A stretch of DNA of 64,000 nucleotides from a phage: the NCBI GenBank assembly GCA_021537435.1, contig GCA_021537435.1_3050.1. One strand, given 5' to 3'. Shown here one piece after another: positions 1,953 through 56,327 of this stretch. The position numbers and the translations under genes were made by a program. The notes beneath the pieces were generated by a model that was given only the letters and a program-made list of their open reading frames with translations, did not search any database and was not told the DNA's origin. Within the stretch, counting starts at the first letter, position 1, and every line of letters starts with the position of its first letter.

Positions 1953-3932
1953 ATGACTTTATTATCTCCGGGCATTGAGCTCAAAGAAACTACGGTTCAA
2001 AGCACCGTGGTTAATAACTCTACTGGTACAGCAGCTTTGGCCGGTAAATTCCAGTGGGGTCCTGCTTTTCAGATTAAACAGGTTACAAATGAAGTAGATT
2101 TAGTTAATACTTTTGGTCAACCAACCGCTGAAACTGCTGACTATTTTATGTCTGCGATGAATTTCTTGCAGTACGGAAATGACTTACGAGTAGTTCGTGC
2201 TGTTGATAGAGATACCGCTAAAAACTCATCGCCAATTGCTGGTAATATTGAATACACAATTTCTACCCCAGGTAGTAACTACGCGGTTGGAGATAAAATC
2301 ACGGTTAAATATGTTTCAGATGATATTGAAACTGAAGGTAAAATTACTGAAGTAGACGCAGATGGAAAAATTAAGAAAATTAATATTCCTACTGCAAAAA
2401 TTATCGCTAAAGCGAAAGAAGTTGGTGAATATCCAACACTAGGTTCTAACTGGACTGCGGAAATTTCTTCGTCTTCCTCTGGTTTAGCTGCAGTAATAAC
2501 TCTTGGAAAAATTATTACTGATTCTGGTATTTTATTAGCTGAAATTGAAAATGCTGAAGCTGCTATGACAGCGGTTGACTTTCAAGCAAATCTCGAAAAA
2601 TACGGAATTCCAGGAGTAGTAGCTCTTTATCCAGGCGAATTAGGCGATAAAATTGAAATTGAAATCGTATCTAAAGCTGACTACGCAAAAGGAGCTTCTG
2701 CATTACTCCCAATTTATCCAGGTGGTGGTACTCGTGCATCTACTGCTAAAGCAGTGTTTGGATATGGACCACAAACTGATTCACAGTATGCTATTATAGT
2801 TCGTCGTAATGATGCTATTGTTCAAAGCGTTGTTCTTTCAACTAAGCGTGGTGAAAAAGATATTTACGATAGTAACATCTATATCGATGACTTTTTCGCA
2901 AAAGGTGGTTCAGAATATATTTTTGCAACTGCACAAAACTGGCCAGAAGGCTTCTCTGGAATTTTAACTCTGTCTGGTGGATTATCATCAAATGCTGAAG
3001 TAACAGCAGGAGATTTGATGGAAGCTTGGGACTTCTTTGCTGACCGTGAATCTGTTGACGTTCAGCTGTTTATTGCGGGTTCTTGTGCCGGTGAATCTTT
3101 AGAAACAGCATCTACTGTCCAAAAACACGTCGTTTCAATTGGGGATGCTCGCCAAGATTGCTTAGTATTGTGCTCACCACCGCGTGAAACTGTAGTTGGA
3201 ATTCCTGTAACTCGTGCAGTAGATAATTTAGTTAACTGGAGAACTGCAGCAGGTTCATACACTGATAATAACTTTAATATCAGTTCAACCTATGCAGCAA
3301 TCGACGGCAACTACAAATATCAGTATGACAAATATAATGATGTGAATCGTTGGGTTCCATTAGCAGCTGATATTGCTGGTTTATGCGCAAGAACTGATAA
3401 CGTATCTCAGACTTGGATGTCACCAGCTGGTTATAATCGTGGTCAGATTCTTAACGTTATTAAACTTGCTATTGAAACTCGCCAGGCTCAGCGCGACCGT
3501 TTATACCAAGAAGCTATCAACCCGGTAACTGGTACAGGTGGCGATGGTTACGTATTGTACGGTGATAAAACAGCTACTTCTGTTCCTTCTCCGTTTGATC
3601 GTATTAACGTTCGTCGTCTGTTTAATATGTTGAAAACGAATATCGGACGTAGTTCAAAATATCGTTTGTTCGAATTAAACAACGCGTTTACTCGTTCATC
3701 ATTCCGCACAGAAACTGCCCAGTACTTACAGGGAATTAAAGCTCTCGGTGGAATTTATGAATATCGTGTAGTTTGCGATACAACAAATAATACTCCGTCA
3801 GTAATTGATAGAAATGAGTTTGTTGCAACATTCTACATCCAACCTGCACGCAGTATAAATTATATCCAACTTAACTTCGTTGCGACTGCTACTGGTGCAG
3901 ATTTCGATGAGTTGACTGGTCTTGCAGGTTAA
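1953..3932 (+). CDS. 18: contractile tail sheath protein gp18
   Basis: 659-aa ORF directly after gene 17; length and position as T4 gp18; SD AAAGAGGA upstream. Confidence 0.9.
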   Translation: MTLLSPGIELKETTVQSTVVNNSTGTAALAGKFQWGPAFQIKQVTNEVDLVNTFGQPTAETADYFMSAMNFLQYGNDLRVVRAVDRDTAKNSSPIAGNIEYTISTPGSNYAVGDKITVKYVSDDIETEGKITEVDADGKIKKINIPTAKIIAKAKEVGEYPTLGSNWTAEISSSSSGLAAVITLGKIITDSGILLAEIENAEAAMTAVDFQANLEKYGIPGVVALYPGELGDKIEIEIVSKADYAKGASALLPIYPGGGTRASTAKAVFGYGPQTDSQYAIIVRRNDAIVQSVVLSTKRGEKDIYDSNIYIDDFFAKGGSEYIFATAQNWPEGFSGILTLSGGLSSNAEVTAGDLMEAWDFFADRESVDVQLFIAGSCAGESLETASTVQKHVVSIGDARQDCLVLCSPPRETVVGIPVTRAVDNLVNWRTAAGSYTDNNFNISSTYAAIDGNYKYQYDKYNDVNRWVPLAADIAGLCARTDNVSQTWMSPAGYNRGQILNVIKLAIETRQAQRDRLYQEAINPVTGTGGDGYVLYGDKTATSVPSPFDRINVRRLFNMLKTNIGRSSKYRLFELNNAFTRSSFRTETAQYLQGIKALGGIYEYRVVCDTTNNTPSVIDRNEFVATFYIQPARSINYIQLNFVATATGADFDELTGLAG

Positions 3933-3948
3933 TACGGTGCATTCTAAA

Positions 3949-3966
3949 GGCCTGTTTCGGCAGGCC
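3949..3966 (+). terminator. GC hairpin after gene 18
   Basis: GGCCTG-tttcgg-CAGGCC; no clean U-run. Confidence 0.4.
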
Positions 3967-3967
3967 A

Positions 3968-3975
3968 TATAAATA
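3968..3975 (+). promoter_or_regulatory. late promoter motif TATAAATA (gene 19, distal)
   Basis: Exact TATAAATA right after the gene 18 terminator hairpin. Confidence 0.5.
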
Positions 3976-4026
3976 CACTATATCCTTAATTCTTTAATTC
4001 TATATGCCCTAGGTTAAACATAGGGA

Positions 4027-4034
4027 TATAAATA
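4027..4034 (+). promoter_or_regulatory. late promoter motif TATAAATA (gene 19, proximal)
   Basis: Exact TATAAATA 15 nt upstream of the gene 19 ATG. Confidence 0.6.
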
Positions 4035-4048
4035 CTACAGAGGCTAAT

Positions 4049-4540
4049 ATGTTTGTAGATGATGTAACACGCGCGTTTGAATCGGGTGATTTTGCGCGAC
4101 CTAACTTATTCCAAGTAGAAATTTCTTATCTTGGACAAAATTTTACGTTTCAATGTAAAGCCACTGCTTTACCAGCTGGTATTGTAGAAAAAATTCCAGT
4201 CGGATTTATGAACCGTAAAATTAACGTAGCAGGCGATCGTACATTCGATGACTGGACTGTTACAGTAATGAACGATGAAGCTCATGATGCTCGCCAGAAG
4301 TTCGTTGATTGGCAAAGCATTGCTGCGGGGCAAGGAAACGAAATTACTGGTGGAAAACCTGCAGAGTATAAAAAGAGCGCTATCGTTCGTCAATATGCTC
4401 GTGACGCTAAAACAGTAACAAAAGAAATTGAAATTAAAGGTCTGTGGCCTACTAACGTGGGTGAACTTCAATTAGATTGGGATTCAAACAATGAAATCCA
4501 AACATTTGAAGTAACTCTTGCTCTCGATTATTGGGAATAA
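4049..4540 (+). CDS. 19: tail tube protein gp19
   Basis: 163-aa ORF after gene 18, preceded by TATAAATA late-promoter motifs and SD GAGG. Confidence 0.9.
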   Translation: MFVDDVTRAFESGDFARPNLFQVEISYLGQNFTFQCKATALPAGIVEKIPVGFMNRKINVAGDRTFDDWTVTVMNDEAHDARQKFVDWQSIAAGQGNEITGGKPAEYKKSAIVRQYARDAKTVTKEIEIKGLWPTNVGELQLDWDSNNEIQTFEVTLALDYWE

Positions 4541-4547
4541 AATGAAT

Positions 4548-4561
4548 GGGGAGAAATCCCC
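4548..4561 (+). terminator. short hairpin after gene 19
   Basis: GGGGA-gaaa-TCCCC. Confidence 0.35.
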
Positions 4562-4572
4562 ATCCTGCTTAA

Positions 4573-6197
<1,625 letters not shown>

Positions 6198-6871: not shown

Positions 6872-7509
6872 TGAATGAACCCCAATTACTAATTGAAACT
6901 TGGGGTCAACCTGGCGAAATTATTGATGGCGTGCCAATGCTTGAATCTCATGATGGAAAAGACCTAGGTTTAAAACCTGGTTTATACATCGAAGGAATAT
7001 TCATGCAAGCGGAAGTCGTCAATAGAAATAAACGTCTTTATCCAAAACGCATATTAGAAAAAGCGGTAAAAGACTATATCAATGAGCAAGTTTTAACTAA
7101 ACAAGCTCTCGGAGAATTAAATCATCCTCCACGCGCTAATGTTGACCCGATGCAAGCCGCTATCATTATAGAAGATATGTGGTGGAAAGGAAATGACGTA
7201 TACGGACGAGCTCGTGTTATTGAAGGTGACCATGGTCCTGGAGATAAATTAGCAGCTAATATTCGTGCCGGATGGATTCCAGGAGTTTCTTCTCGTGGAT
7301 TAGGTTCATTGACTGACACAAATAAAGGTTATCGTATCGTAAACGAAGGATTCAAATTAACTGTAGGTGTTGATGCAGTATGGGGTCCAAGTGCTCCAGA
7401 TGCATGGGTAACTCCTAAGGAAATTACCGAATCACAGACGGCGGAAGCCGATACAAGTGCCGATGACGCCTATATGGCTCTCGCAGAGGCCATGAAAAAA
7501 GCGTTATAA
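6871..7509 (+). CDS. 21: prohead core protease gp21
   Basis: 212-aa ORF in the T4 gene 21 position and size. Confidence 0.9.
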   Translation: MNEPQLLIETWGQPGEIIDGVPMLESHDGKDLGLKPGLYIEGIFMQAEVVNRNKRLYPKRILEKAVKDYINEQVLTKQALGELNHPPRANVDPMQAAIIIEDMWWKGNDVYGRARVIEGDHGPGDKLAANIRAGWIPGVSSRGLGSLTDTNKGYRIVNEGFKLTVGVDAVWGPSAPDAWVTPKEITESQTAEADTSADDAYMALAEAMKKAL

Positions 7510-8367: not shown

Positions 8368-9933
8368 ATGACTATCAAAACTAAAGCTGAACTTTTGAAC
8401 AAATGGAAGCCATTACTGGAAGGTGAAGGTTTACCGGAAATTGCTAATAGCAAACAAGCGATTATCGCTAAAATCTTTGAAAACCAGGAAAAAGATTTCC
8501 AGACAGCTCCGGAATATAAAGACGAAAAAATTGCTCAGGCATTCGGTTCTTTCTTAACAGAAGCTGAAATCGGTGGTGACCACGGTTACAATGCTACCAA
8601 CATCGCTGCAGGTCAGACTTCTGGCGCAGTAACTCAGATTGGCCCAGCTGTTATGGGTATGGTACGTCGTGCTATTCCTAACCTGATTGCTTTCGATATT
8701 TGCGGTGTTCAGCCGATGAACAGCCCGACTGGCCAGGTATTCGCACTGCGCGCAGTATATGGTAAAGACCCAGTGGCTGCCGGTGCTAAAGAAGCATTCC
8801 ACCCAATGTATGGTCCAGATGCAATGTTCTCTGGTCAGGGTGCTGCTAAGAAATTCCCAGCTCTGGCTGCTAATACCACTACAGTCGTAGGTGACATTTA
8901 TTCTCACTTCTTCCAGGAAACTGGTACCGTATATCTACAAGCTTCTGCTGTCGTAACACTTGATTCTAGCGCGACTGATGCTGCTAAATTAGATGCCGAA
9001 GTTAAAAAACAAATGGAAGCTGGTGCACTGGTAGAAATCGCTGAAGGTATGGCTACTTCTATCGCTGAACTTCAGGAAGGTTTCAATGGTTCTACCGATA
9101 ACCCATGGAATGAAATGGGCTTCCGTATCGATAAACAAGTTATCGAAGCTAAATCTCGTCAGCTGAAAGCTGCTTACTCTATCGAATTAGCACAAGACCT
9201 CCGCGCTGTTCACGGTATGGATGCTGATGCTGAACTGTCTGGTATTCTGGCTACCGAAATCATGCTGGAAATCAACCGCGAAGTTGTTGATTGGATTAAC
9301 TACTCCGCACAGGTTGGTAAATCTGGTATGACCCTGACTCCGGGTTCTAAAGCTGGTGTATTTGACTTCCAGGACCCAATCGATATTCGTGGTGCTCGTT
9401 GGGCAGGTGAATCCTTTAAAGCTCTGTTGTTCCAGATTGACAAAGAAGCAGTTGAAATTGCTCGTCAGACTGGTCGCGGCGAAGGTAACTTCATTATCGC
9501 TTCCCGTAACGTAGTTAACGTTCTGGCTTCAGTTGATACTGGCATTTCTTATGCTGCACAGGGTCTGGCTACCGGCTTCAACACTGATACTACCAAGTCA
9601 GTATTTGCTGGTGTTCTGGGTGGTAAATACCGCGTATATATCGACCAGTATGCTAAACAGGATTATTTCACTGTAGGTTATAAAGGTCCGAACGAAATGG
9701 ATGCTGGTATTTACTATGCTCCATATGTAGCTCTGACTCCGCTGCGTGGTTCCGATCCGAAGAACTTCCAACCGGTAATGGGATTCAAAACTCGTTACGG
9801 TATCGGTATCAACCCATTTGCAGAATCCGCTGCTCAGGCTCCGGCTTCTCGCATCCAGAGCGGTATGCCTTCTATTCTGAATAGCCTTGGTAAAAACGCT
9901 TACTTCCGCCGTGTATATGTTAAAGGTATTTAA
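8368..9933 (+). CDS. 23: major capsid protein gp23
   Basis: 521-aa ORF, N-terminal propeptide ending …AEIGGDHGY, high-expression codon usage, strong terminator downstream. Confidence 0.95.
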   Translation: MTIKTKAELLNKWKPLLEGEGLPEIANSKQAIIAKIFENQEKDFQTAPEYKDEKIAQAFGSFLTEAEIGGDHGYNATNIAAGQTSGAVTQIGPAVMGMVRRAIPNLIAFDICGVQPMNSPTGQVFALRAVYGKDPVAAGAKEAFHPMYGPDAMFSGQGAAKKFPALAANTTTVVGDIYSHFFQETGTVYLQASAVVTLDSSATDAAKLDAEVKKQMEAGALVEIAEGMATSIAELQEGFNGSTDNPWNEMGFRIDKQVIEAKSRQLKAAYSIELAQDLRAVHGMDADAELSGILATEIMLEINREVVDWINYSAQVGKSGMTLTPGSKAGVFDFQDPIDIRGARWAGESFKALLFQIDKEAVEIARQTGRGEGNFIIASRNVVNVLASVDTGISYAAQGLATGFNTDTTKSVFAGVLGGKYRVYIDQYAKQDYFTVGYKGPNEMDAGIYYAPYVALTPLRGSDPKNFQPVMGFKTRYGIGINPFAESAAQAPASRIQSGMPSILNSLGKNAYFRRVYVKGI

Positions 9934-9949
9934 GATATAACCTTATTAT

Positions 9950-9967
9950 GGGAGACTTCGGTCTCCC
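9950..9967 (+). terminator. rho-independent terminator after gene 23
   Basis: GGGAGAC-ttcg-GTCTCCC followed by a T-rich tract. Confidence 0.8.
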
Positions 9968-9982
9968 ATTCTTGTTTCTATA

Positions 9983-10249
9983 CTACGCAATCTTAACTCG
10001 ACGGTTGATGATGTCACGGAAGTCAATACGATTTTCTTGGATTTTCAGCCAGTTACCAGATTTGTCTTTGGTATGGGTAGAATATTCACCGTTCCACCAG
10101 AAGTCAGTAGCATAAGCCATGGTTTCATATTTCTTAACTAGGGCATTCACTGCATTACCGTTAGGATTGGAACCATATTTTTCTACCAGGGCTTTGATGT
10201 CTTTATCAAGAGCGGACAGAGTAGTACGAATAAAGTTTAACTTGTTCAT
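9983..10249 (-). CDS. hypothetical protein (88 aa from the internal ATG; ORF open to 10264)
   Basis: Minus-strand ORF in the 23-24 intergenic region; the ATG at 10249 has a near-perfect SD AGGAGA with 7-nt spacing; an 88-codon open frame in AT-rich DNA is unlikely by chance. Confidence 0.5.
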   Translation of the reverse strand: MNKLNFIRTTLSALDKDIKALVEKYGSNPNGNAVNALVKKYETMAYATDFWWNGEYSTHTKDKSGNWLKIQENRIDFRDIINRRVKIA

Positions 10250-10315
10250 TTTTAATCTCCTCATGTTTTTGATAGGTCTATAGTAACATGTGATAACCTT
10301 GCTGTAAACAACTTT

Positions 10316-10323
10316 TATAAATA
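10316..10323 (+). promoter_or_regulatory. late promoter motif TATAAATA (gene 24)
   Basis: Exact match ~29 nt upstream of the gene 24 ATG. Confidence 0.6.
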
Positions 10324-10351
10324 AACATATACTCTCAACAAGGAAAGCGCA

Positions 10352-11635
10352 ATGGCTAAAATCAACGAACTTCTGCGCGAATCAACCACAACGAATAGCA
10401 ACTCAATCGGTCGCCCAAATCTCGTTGCTTTGACTCGCGCTACCACTAAATTAATATATTCTGACATTGTAGCAACGCAAAGAACTAATCAACCTGTTGC
10501 TGCTTTTTATGGTATCAAATACCTTAATCCAGATAACGAATTTACTTTTAAAACTGGTGCTACTTACGCTGGCGAAGCTGGATATGTAGACCGAGAACAA
10601 ATCACAGAATTAACAGAAGAGTCTAAATTAACTCTCAATAAAGGCGATTTATTCAAATATAATAATATCGTTTATAAAGTATTAGAAGATACACCATTTG
10701 CTACCATTGAAGAAAGCGATTTAGAATTAGCTCTTCAGATTGCAATTGTTCTTTTAAAGGTTCGTCTATTTTCTGACGCAGCGTCAACGAGCAAATTTGA
10801 AAGCTCTGATAGCGAAATTGCGGATGCTAGATTCCAGATTAATAAATGGCAAACCGCAGTTAAATCTCGTAAACTTAAAACTGGCATCACAGTTGAATTA
10901 GCACAAGATTTAGAAGCAAATGGATTCGATGCTCCTAATTTCTTGGAAGATTTGCTTGCAACTGAAATGGCGGATGAAATCAATAAAGATATTCTACAGT
11001 CTTTGATTACAGTATCAAAACGCTATAAAGTTACAGGAATTACTGATACCGGTTTCATTGATTTGAGTTATGCATCTGCACCTGAAGCTGGTCGTTCATT
11101 ATACCGAATGGTATGTGAAATGGTTTCACATATCCAAAAAGAATCAACTTATACAGCAACGTTCTGTGTTGCTTCAGCTCGTGCTGCTGCGATTCTTGCT
11201 GCATCAGGTTGGTTAAAACATAAACCAGAAGATGATAAATATCTTTCACAAAATGCCTACGGGTTCTTAGCTAATGGTTTACCGCTTTATTGCGATACTA
11301 ACAGCCCATTAGATTATGTAATCGTTGGCGTGGTAGAAAATATTGGCGAAAAAGAAATTGTTGGATCAATTTTCTATGCTCCGTATACAGAAGGTCTTGA
11401 CTTAGATGACCCTGAACATGTAGGTGCATTTAAAGTTGTAGTTGATCCAGAAAGTTTGCAGCCATCTATCGGTTTATTAGTTAGATATGCTTTATCTGCA
11501 AATCCTTACACTGTAGCAAAAGATGAAAAAGAAGCAAGAATAATTGATGGTGGAGACATGGATAAAATGGCGGGTCGTTCAGATTTGTCTGTTTTATTAG
11601 GTGTTAAGTTACCAAAAATTATTGTTGATGAATAA
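10352..11635 (+). CDS. 24: capsid vertex protein gp24
   Basis: 427-aa ORF, gp23 paralogue by position and size; TATAAATA at 10316-10323. Confidence 0.9.
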   Translation: MAKINELLRESTTTNSNSIGRPNLVALTRATTKLIYSDIVATQRTNQPVAAFYGIKYLNPDNEFTFKTGATYAGEAGYVDREQITELTEESKLTLNKGDLFKYNNIVYKVLEDTPFATIEESDLELALQIAIVLLKVRLFSDAASTSKFESSDSEIADARFQINKWQTAVKSRKLKTGITVELAQDLEANGFDAPNFLEDLLATEMADEINKDILQSLITVSKRYKVTGITDTGFIDLSYASAPEAGRSLYRMVCEMVSHIQKESTYTATFCVASARAAAILAASGWLKHKPEDDKYLSQNAYGFLANGLPLYCDTNSPLDYVIVGVVENIGEKEIVGSIFYAPYTEGLDLDDPEHVGAFKVVVDPESLQPSIGLLVRYALSANPYTVAKDEKEARIIDGGDMDKMAGRSDLSVLLGVKLPKIIVDE

Positions 11636-38137: not shown

Positions 38138-38199
38138 TTTGTTTTCCTCATTTGTTTTGGTAGAGCTATAATATCACAACTCTACCATAAAGTAAACTG

Positions 38200-52151: not shown

Positions 52152-52289
52152 TTTATTCTCCTTAGCAAGCTTTAATCAAAAGATATAAACAGACCAACAT
52201 AACTATTGCCATAATATAAGGTGCGAACATTTTCTTTTCTCCATTAGTTTTGATAGGGTAATAGTATCACACTACTACCCTTTTGTAAA

Positions 52290-52676
52290 CTACTTTTTGA
52301 AAGTTTTTCGCAAAAGTTCAATGATTTCATCTACATTGTTTTCGTCAACAATGCAGTGAATTTTTGTCACGCCAGAAACTATACCTTCATTAGCGGATTG
52401 AGGCTTTTCTAAAGTTACCTCAGTAAAGTATTTGAATTCTTCAGAGTAAATCTCAAAATACGTCTCAAGTGGGCCACCCGCCATGTATTCAGTGCCATCT
52501 TCCATAGTTACACGTACCACACATTCACCAGCACAATCATCACTTTCCATTTCATCTACAACAAAACTAGGCCCGTGCTTCTCTATTAAATTTAGCATCA
52601 TTACATTGCAACGGCACTCGTTAGCAAAGTCATTTTTAAATAAAGGGTTAATGATATAAGTTTTTCCAACTTCCAT
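52290..52676 (-). CDS. hypothetical protein
   Basis: 128-aa ORF. Confidence 0.55.
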   Translation of the reverse strand: MEVGKTYIINPLFKNDFANECRCNVMMLNLIEKHGPSFVVDEMESDDCAGECVVRVTMEDGTEYMAGGPLETYFEIYSEEFKYFTEVTLEKPQSANEGIVSGVTKIHCIVDENNVDEIIELLRKTFKK

Positions 52677-52720: not shown

Positions 52721-53023
52721 TTATTGTTCAATTAATACCATGTAAAATTCTGTGTCTTCAGAATCCATACCATCACAATATTCATTAGCCATAAAGCGGG
52801 TGAGGTCTTCAAGAGGACCTTCAATAACGATTTGAATACTCCAAAACTTAGAATCTTGCACGCTTGTGATACTAAGTTCAGGATAACGATTACGAATAAT
52901 TTCTTCGATATATTCAAAATCAACGATGTCAATATCAACTTTAGCCATATTATTTTCCTCTTTAATCATCAGCAGTATTGCCGATAGTTGTATAGTACCA
53001 CAGTTCTTATAGTATGTAAACAA
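52721..53023 (-). CDS. hypothetical protein
   Basis: 100-aa ORF upstream of gene 32. Confidence 0.5.
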
Positions 53024-56265: not shown

Positions 56266-56327
56266 ATGAACCTCGTTCAATTAGTGAGATTTCTATTATA
56301 TACCATCCAAATCTTAAAGTAAACAAG

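Follow-up and report, generated by a model that had tools for sequence, protein, structure and literature searches.

The morons of lambdoid phages, as reportedly described by Juhala and Hendrix, are extra genes with their own promoter and terminator that lie between genes adjacent in relatives. T4-type phages carry promoter-early stem-loop (PeSL) cassettes (Arbiol 2010, PMC2839356; Comeau 2014, PMC4122927), and the T4/PST consensus for the early promoter of these cassettes is TTTACW-N17-TAYWAT (Comeau 2014, PMC4122927). Phage T4 also carries segD, the one homing endonuclease gene of T4 that runs against the genes beside it; a promoter specific to segD was not found (Edgell et al., PMC2988022).

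In this study, we examine the interval between genes 23 and 24 in a 64,000-nt stretch of phage DNA (contig GCA_021537435.1_3050.1), referred to here as the window. Gene 23, which encodes the major head protein, occupies 8368-9933, and gene 24, which encodes the vertex protein, occupies 10352-11635, both on the plus strand, with 418 bp between the end of the former (9933) and the start of the latter (10352). An earlier note on this DNA had placed in the interval a minus-strand ORF of 88 to 93 residues, and the coordinates bear this out: the longest minus-strand ORF runs over 9983..10264, with 93 residues from the first ATG, and a second ATG at 10249 gives a protein of 88 residues that begins MNKLNF (9983..10249). 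The upstream ATG has no Shine-Dalgarno before it, as read from the sequence, and is not kept in diverged homologues, and M1 of the 88-residue form is invariant in 23 homologues; the 88-residue start is therefore the real start. It is served by the Shine-Dalgarno GAGGAGA at 10256..10262 (minus strand), which is kept in JS98, IME341, and mobillu and lies 6 nt 5' of the ATG at 10249, so that the near-perfect Shine-Dalgarno of the earlier note stands and its 7-nt spacer does not. The product is a hydrophilic protein of 10.25 kDa with a pI of 9.6 that belongs to the JS98 ORF173c / PHROG 6003 family. The best explanation of the locus as a whole is that of a self-contained early unit, carried as a dispensable and exchanged cassette, whose product would act by binding. 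We consider this explanation quite probable in its entirety, and the part of it that concerns the gene and the cassette a shade more probable still.

The cassette shares with PeSLs an A/T-rich stretch, a TTTACW-N17-TAYWAT promoter, a Shine-Dalgarno, and an ATG, followed by a small ORF without a named function; in addition, the ORF differs between close relatives, and exchange proceeds via short conserved sequences. Unlike in PeSLs, no stem-loop lies directly upstream of the ORF promoter, a position taken by the gene 24 late promoter and start codon; the cassette sits in the conserved structural head-gene module rather than in a hyperplastic region, and its crossovers fall at the ends of genes 23 and 24 rather than in PeSL repeats. 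As with morons, the ORF is present or absent between otherwise adjacent genes and has its own promoter, a hairpin at its end, and a deviant base composition, and a homologue on a contig of ~50 kb shows the textbook layout of terminator, promoter, and ORF. In contrast to lambdoid morons, the ORF belongs to a virulent phage and has no prophage expression, and it shares with gene 23 a terminator that is weak when read in the ORF direction. The finding is real but ordinary, in that it concerns an annotated accessory gene in a known kind of arrangement. The value of the gene itself is modest, although its start and promoter are now defined, its fold is modelled with confidence, and its status as an accessory gene is clear. 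The main interest is evolutionary and lies in a precise swap, in which a gene-sized cassette moves between T4-like genera via two 17-nt patches in the conservative head module, and in the simple explanation that the locus offers for the odd orientation of segD in the T4 literature.

A tblastn search found the ORF in 238 phage records, all but one of which (237/238) cover at least 80% of the query, at identities that range from 100% down to ~36%. Homologues at ~30-37% identity keep both length and position, and those at ~30% identity keep the length, the start codon, and the invariant residues. Pairwise dN/dS by the Nei-Gojobori method, from unsaturated comparisons, is 0.03-0.13; against JS98, the ORF carries eight synonymous changes and one non-synonymous change. 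The protein matches PHROG 6003 over its full length (E=5.8e-50), with residues 1-88 on profile positions 1-88 of 90. The number and coverage of the records, the dN/dS values, and the PHROG match place the ORF far beyond chance, and it is a real protein-coding gene under purifying selection. PHROG 6003, which is annotated as of unknown function, is the family of JS98 ORF173c, VR7ORF190c, and the proteins like RB69ORF188c. The homology search that the earlier note had proposed thus assigns the ORF to a family that is unnamed beyond "hypothetical protein".

The gene was already known, since it is annotated as a hypothetical protein in more than 200 T4-like phages and is catalogued as PHROG 6003. 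The exact protein is in GenBank as AVH86003.1 of phage vB_EcoM-G28, and the names given to it and to its clusters in public sources are all "hypothetical" or "uncharacterized". Literature searches by locus tags, by PHROG and VOG identifiers, and by "genes 23 and 24" returned no paper on the ORF. In every T4-like locus opened, namely those of JS98 (ORF173c, EpJS98_gp173), G28, JS09 (annotated as similar to RB69ORF188c), VR7 (VR7ORF190c), IME341, and mobillu, the ORF separates genes 23 and 24 and runs opposite to them. The JS98 ORF173c / VR7ORF190c family shares position, strand, promoter, and ribosome-binding site with the window ORF. The window protein is 98.9% identical to that of JS98, and the gene itself is no different from JS98 ORF173c; only the backbone differs, being that of a Tequatrovirus and not of a Dhakavirus. 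No paralogue of the ORF was found within the 64-kb window.

An exhaustive profile HMM search of 1.84 billion representatives added only a handful of further family members; its other matches were low-complexity or repeat false positives and one chimeric ORF from a metagenome. When a diverse profile was used in a second, word-indexed search, the family grew to 23 usable sequences, in whose alignment M1, K3, F6, N30, G31, N32, and Q71 are invariant. Two entries in this material are irregular. The RB69 family member (BFVD Q7Y4W1, RB69ORF188c) is listed at 41 residues and the other Mosigvirus members have 89, so RB69 ORF188c may be truncated or mis-annotated. In P0010, a metagenome protein of 160 residues from a contig of 701 bp, the C-terminal 34 residues are identical to residues 31-64 of the window protein and the N-terminal part is unrelated to it; P0010 is most likely an assembly chimera.

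The 23-sequence alignment yielded an AlphaFold2 model with a pLDDT of 94.5 and a pTM of 0.80. The predicted fold consists of a helix over residues 3-25, a helix over 31-48, a beta-hairpin (52-61/67-71), and a helix over 77-87, with the two long helices joined by the invariant N-G-N loop. Neither the single protein nor the 23 members contained a Pfam domain, the best candidate being DUF5380 at E=0.085 against a 29-bit cut-off. A search of the family members against NCBIfam gave noise only, the PADLOC models of anti-phage defence components returned no families at E<=1, and a sequence-profile search of the PDB gave nothing below E=0.16. Foldseek with the model gave no informative match, and BFVD returned only a family member. 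A winged-helix reading taken from the first Foldseek list was dropped, given TM scores of 0.2-0.3 and its failure to recur with the better model.

The conserved residues are of polar, non-catalytic types (Lys, Asn, Gln) or occupy positions in the hydrophobic core, and this lack of conserved catalytic-type residues makes a binding protein more likely than an enzyme. Many T4 early accessory proteins act by binding a host protein or nucleic acid. The small basic protein would likewise act by binding, its target being a host protein or nucleic acid as for early factors of host takeover or counter-defence. A host-binding or counter-defence role is one that we entertain tentatively, as somewhat short of an even chance. 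A bolder version holds that the protein is an early counter-defence or host-takeover factor of new fold and that its position beside gene 23 is meaningful, as it would be if the major capsid protein set off a host system that this factor counters; the transfer of the cassette into a Tequatrovirus would then reflect selection by such a system. We regard this version as unlikely.

A sequence match to a sigma-70 promoter of the T4 early type, TTTACA-17 nt-TACTAT with TG before the -10, lies upstream of the ORF at 10280..10308 on the minus strand, with the -35 TTTACA at 10308-10303 and the -10 TACTAT at 10285-10280. It fits the TTTACW-N17-TAYWAT consensus exactly. The strict form GTTTACW-N17-TAYWAT occurs five times in the 64-kb window against an expectation of 0.11, each time before an ORF and in all five cases on the minus strand, so that the ORF has the orientation of every strict early-promoter match in the window. 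The four other matches lie on that strand at 38168-38197, 52261-52290, 52992-53021, and 56295-56324 and precede ORFs of 78, 80, 82, and 305 residues, respectively. The -35 and a -10 of the pattern TAnnAT are kept in six phages (the window, JS98, IME341, JS09, VR7, and, upstream of segD, T4). The supplement of an omics study that followed T4 infection over time (PMC9697503) places segD in the class "early-RNA_middle-Protein" and gives quantities of SegD peptides from early time points. By analogy, these entries support early activity of this class of promoter at the 23-24 position, and the ORF is probably transcribed by the host polymerase immediately after infection.

The late promoter of gene 24, TATAAATA, was read from the sequence at 10316..10323 on the plus strand and is invariant in seven of seven aligned phages. 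It stands 8 nt beyond the early -35, occupying the A/T-rich stretch upstream of the early promoter; the two form a compact divergent pair that is kept in all aligned phages. At the other end of the interval, a hairpin with a 9-bp stem and a TTCG loop (ATGGGAGAC-TTCG-GTCTCCCAT) spans 9948..9969 and is followed by a T-tract on the plus strand; it is annotated as a terminator in G28 and is the gene 23 terminator. The earlier note had set the ORF between this terminator and the gene 24 late promoter, and both flanking elements are found there. On the minus strand, the hairpin lies 13 nt past the ORF stop (-16.1 kcal/mol, z=-3.8) and has no U-tract after it, which makes termination on that strand uncertain; for the ORF transcript it would be at best a weak terminator or a 3' stabiliser. 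A further terminator-like hairpin lies on the minus strand at 10397-10415, within the 5' end of gene 24 and on the upstream side of the early promoter; T4 has the identical hairpin (locus extract 7369-7387). It could be a barrier to transcripts that read through from the rnlB side, or a product of chance.

These elements suggest how the 23-24 interval would operate as an early transcription unit complete in itself. In the first minutes of infection, the sigma-70 RNA polymerase of the host would transcribe the minus strand, starting near 10273, and the strong ribosome-binding site would drive translation of the basic, soluble protein of 88 residues; the transcript would stop at the gene 23 hairpin or run past it. 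The same arrangement lends itself to a different reading, in which the main role lies at the RNA level and the peptide is secondary: early transcription of the minus strand, running over the gene 24 late promoter and reaching the 3' end of gene 23, would exert antisense control of the head genes or transcriptional interference on them. The back-to-back promoters, 8 nt apart and both conserved, are compatible with this, as are the strictly conserved position of the unit and the lack of a minus-strand U-tract after the hairpin, which makes read-through into antisense gene 23 plausible. However, the codon-level purifying selection and the strong ribosome-binding site show the protein to be what is conserved, synonymous sites diverge freely, and T4 and the empty-site phages manage without the ORF sequence. 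A primary role of the RNA is therefore quite unlikely, and an RNA-level effect may exist as an extra function of the protein-coding early unit that we favour.

The interval is 100% identical to that of the Escherichia phages GEP001, vB_EcoM_JE01, vB_EcoM-G28, EP01, KIT06, and HZ_ZJUN4, whose records all call the ORF a hypothetical protein; the classification of G28 assigns it to Tequatrovirus. Genes 22, 23, 24, and rnlB of the window are 96-98% identical to those of T4, and the window is that of a Tequatrovirus. Against the Dhakavirus JS98, the interval is 96.4% identical, whereas identity falls to 80% for gene 23 and 69% for gene 24. Informative sites are of Tequatrovirus type up to 9912, of JS98 type after 9933, and of Tequatrovirus type again from 10357, and the right junction lies within 10334-10356. 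The two switches coincide with 17-nt patches that are identical in the window, the empty-site Tequatrovirus Paracelsus, and JS98: the left crossover patch, GTATATGTTAAAGGTAT, lies at the gene 23 end (9913..9929), and the right one, AAGGAAAGCGCAATGGC, covers the ribosome-binding site and start of gene 24 (10340..10356). Since the type switches at these two patches, this is a precise cassette swap, and since the hairpin is of the JS98 sequence type, the whole interval moved, from the terminator to the late promoter. The GC3 of the ORF, 0.43 against 0.22 for gene 24 (0.22-0.24 for gene 24 and rnlB), fits a foreign origin. On these comparisons, the locus is a Dhakavirus-type cassette in a Tequatrovirus backbone, and the cassette passes between T4-like genera through homology patches of ~17 nt at the gene 23 end and the gene 24 start.

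Comparison of the 23-24 interval across T4-like phages revealed four states of the site: empty, ORF, segD, and ORF plus segD. The survey used 800 bp from each flank as the query, and its rows come from a spread sample of the matches. Among the Tequatrovirus-level rows of this sample, 24 of 26 have an empty interval of 83 bp (span 1681-1683 bp), as Paracelsus confirms, and T4 and PYps10T span 2409 bp, with segD. Matches at ~88-89% flank identity, which were Mosigvirus where checked, span either 2023 bp (ORF only) or ~2687 bp (ORF plus endonuclease). The ORF is the regular occupant of the site in Dhakavirus, Mosigvirus, and Gaprivervirus, and ORF plus segD occurs in some Dhaka- and Mosigviruses. 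The suggestion of a moron-like accessory gene is thus upheld by the gene's own promoter, by a terminator hairpin, and by its absence from most close relatives, in which the 23-24 gap is 83 bp, and the four states bear out the suggestion of a turnover hot spot.

The earlier note had proposed that a frameshift of the ORF in close relatives would count against the gene. Exactly one record has such a frameshift: in the Tequatrovirus 310Ecol104PP, a 93%-identical copy of the ORF is broken and annotated at 64 residues, which reads as a sign of a dispensable gene and not of a spurious one. The ORF appears, from this copy, to be dispensable at least in 310Ecol104PP. The break consists of a 10-bp tandem duplication (GATTTTCTTG) and a 10-bp deletion, ~80 nt apart (locus extract ~550-820), and the copy also has a 1-nt deletion in the spacer before the start codon; the disruption is either true decay or an assembly error.

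The T4 locus contains segD between genes 23 and 24, as the earlier note had stated, at the same site as the ORF and likewise on the minus strand. A sigma-70 match, TTTACA-17-TATTAT with TG (10/12), lies directly upstream of T4 segD on the minus strand (NC_000866 ~107253-107281; locus extract 7254-7282); this promoter-like site is homologous to the ORF promoter and, like it, is divergent from the gene 24 late promoter. The products of the two loci differ. SegD is a GIY-YIG homing endonuclease and is unrelated to the ORF product, which shows no GIY-YIG catalytic domain or nuclease signature in any of the 23 members and whose predicted fold is one of three helices and a hairpin, and T4 lacks the ORF. 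In IME341 and mobillu, in contrast to both T4 and the window, the ORF and segD stand in tandem: an endonuclease gene (223 residues in IME341, 219 in mobillu) begins 3 nt past the ORF stop on the same strand, and the IME341 endonuclease shares 56% identity with T4 SegD along its full length. The simplest history, which rests on six genomes rather than on a phylogenetic reconstruction, would be insertion of a SegD-type gene at the tail of the early unit, followed in the T4 lineage by loss of the ORF but not of the promoter. The backward orientation of segD in T4 would then follow from the place of SegD-type genes at the tail of the ORF's early unit, whose promoter T4 has kept.

The earlier interpretation is thus partly supported. 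Its moron-like gene and its turnover hot spot stand, and its reading of the ORF as a remnant and its framing of the ORF as an odd-strand replacement of segD do not. To single out the opposite strand as a peculiarity of the ORF is misleading, because T4 segD has the same minus-strand orientation. It is likewise misleading to present the ORF as standing "instead of" segD, because the ORF regularly occupies this site in the three genera named above.

The close association of the two genes also raises the idea that the ORF is a partner of the SegD-type endonuclease, acting as a helper, an immunity factor, or a carrier of the target site, and that the locus is one mobile element. The SegD orthologues of IME341 and mobillu lie in the same unit, 3 nt past the ORF stop, and sharp-bordered cassette exchange of the kind seen here can come from endonuclease-driven co-conversion. 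However, the ORF occurs without an endonuclease in the window, JS98, VR7, and JS09 and in five of the eight Mosigvirus-level rows of the spread sample (~88-89% identity), segD occurs without the ORF in T4, and distant homologues in other types of phage have no adjoining endonuclease. Insertion of segD into a pre-existing unit is the simpler reading, and a partnership is very unlikely.

Members of the family also occur beyond T4-like phages. A 40%-identical member stands among small hypothetical ORFs in the Acinetobacter phage ABPH49 (Vequintavirinae), and such a member also occurs in a metagenomic contig of 141 kb. Another is found in the temperate-phage-like contig of ~50 kb, just past a primase-polymerase gene and with NinX and Ead/Ea22 genes nearby; a terminator hairpin and a TTGACG-17-TATACT promoter stand ahead of it there. 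With these distant members outside T4-like phages, the family behaves as a mobile, self-contained accessory gene.

This distribution bears on a further proposal, namely that the protein serves the head genes on either side, for example by chaperoning or regulating the assembly of gp23/gp24 or by forming a minor part of the head itself. The ORF does keep its place between these two genes in all T4-like loci inspected, over three or four genera and down to ~35% identity. Nevertheless, the homologues in Vequintavirinae and in the temperate-like element are not beside head genes, the ORF is absent from most Tequatroviruses, in which gp23 and gp24 are nearly identical, and both its sigma-70 promoter and its orientation are those of an early gene. 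A head function is accordingly as improbable as the partnership with SegD. Finally, that the ORF is a functionless chance frame or a decaying remnant left by the turnover of mobile elements such as segD is scarcely credible. The four states do mark the site as a turnover hot spot, the gene is missing from most Tequatroviruses, and the 310Ecol104PP copy is truncated to 64 residues, but the gene of the window is intact and under strong purifying selection (dN/dS 0.03-0.13), 237 of the 238 records cover at least 80% of it, homologues at ~30% identity keep its length, start codon, and invariant residues, its structure model is confident, and its promoter and ribosome-binding site are conserved.

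Two observations concern the genes around the interval. JS98 (extract 3418-5982), VR7 (1-2395), and IME341 (1-2399) each have two diverged copies of gene 24 in tandem, and the window, T4, and JS09 have one; the copy number shows no correlation with the presence of the small ORF. In JS09, rnlB (RNA ligase 2; extract 86-1085) is annotated as two CDS pieces of 720 and 150 nt, which suggests a frameshift or a sequencing error.
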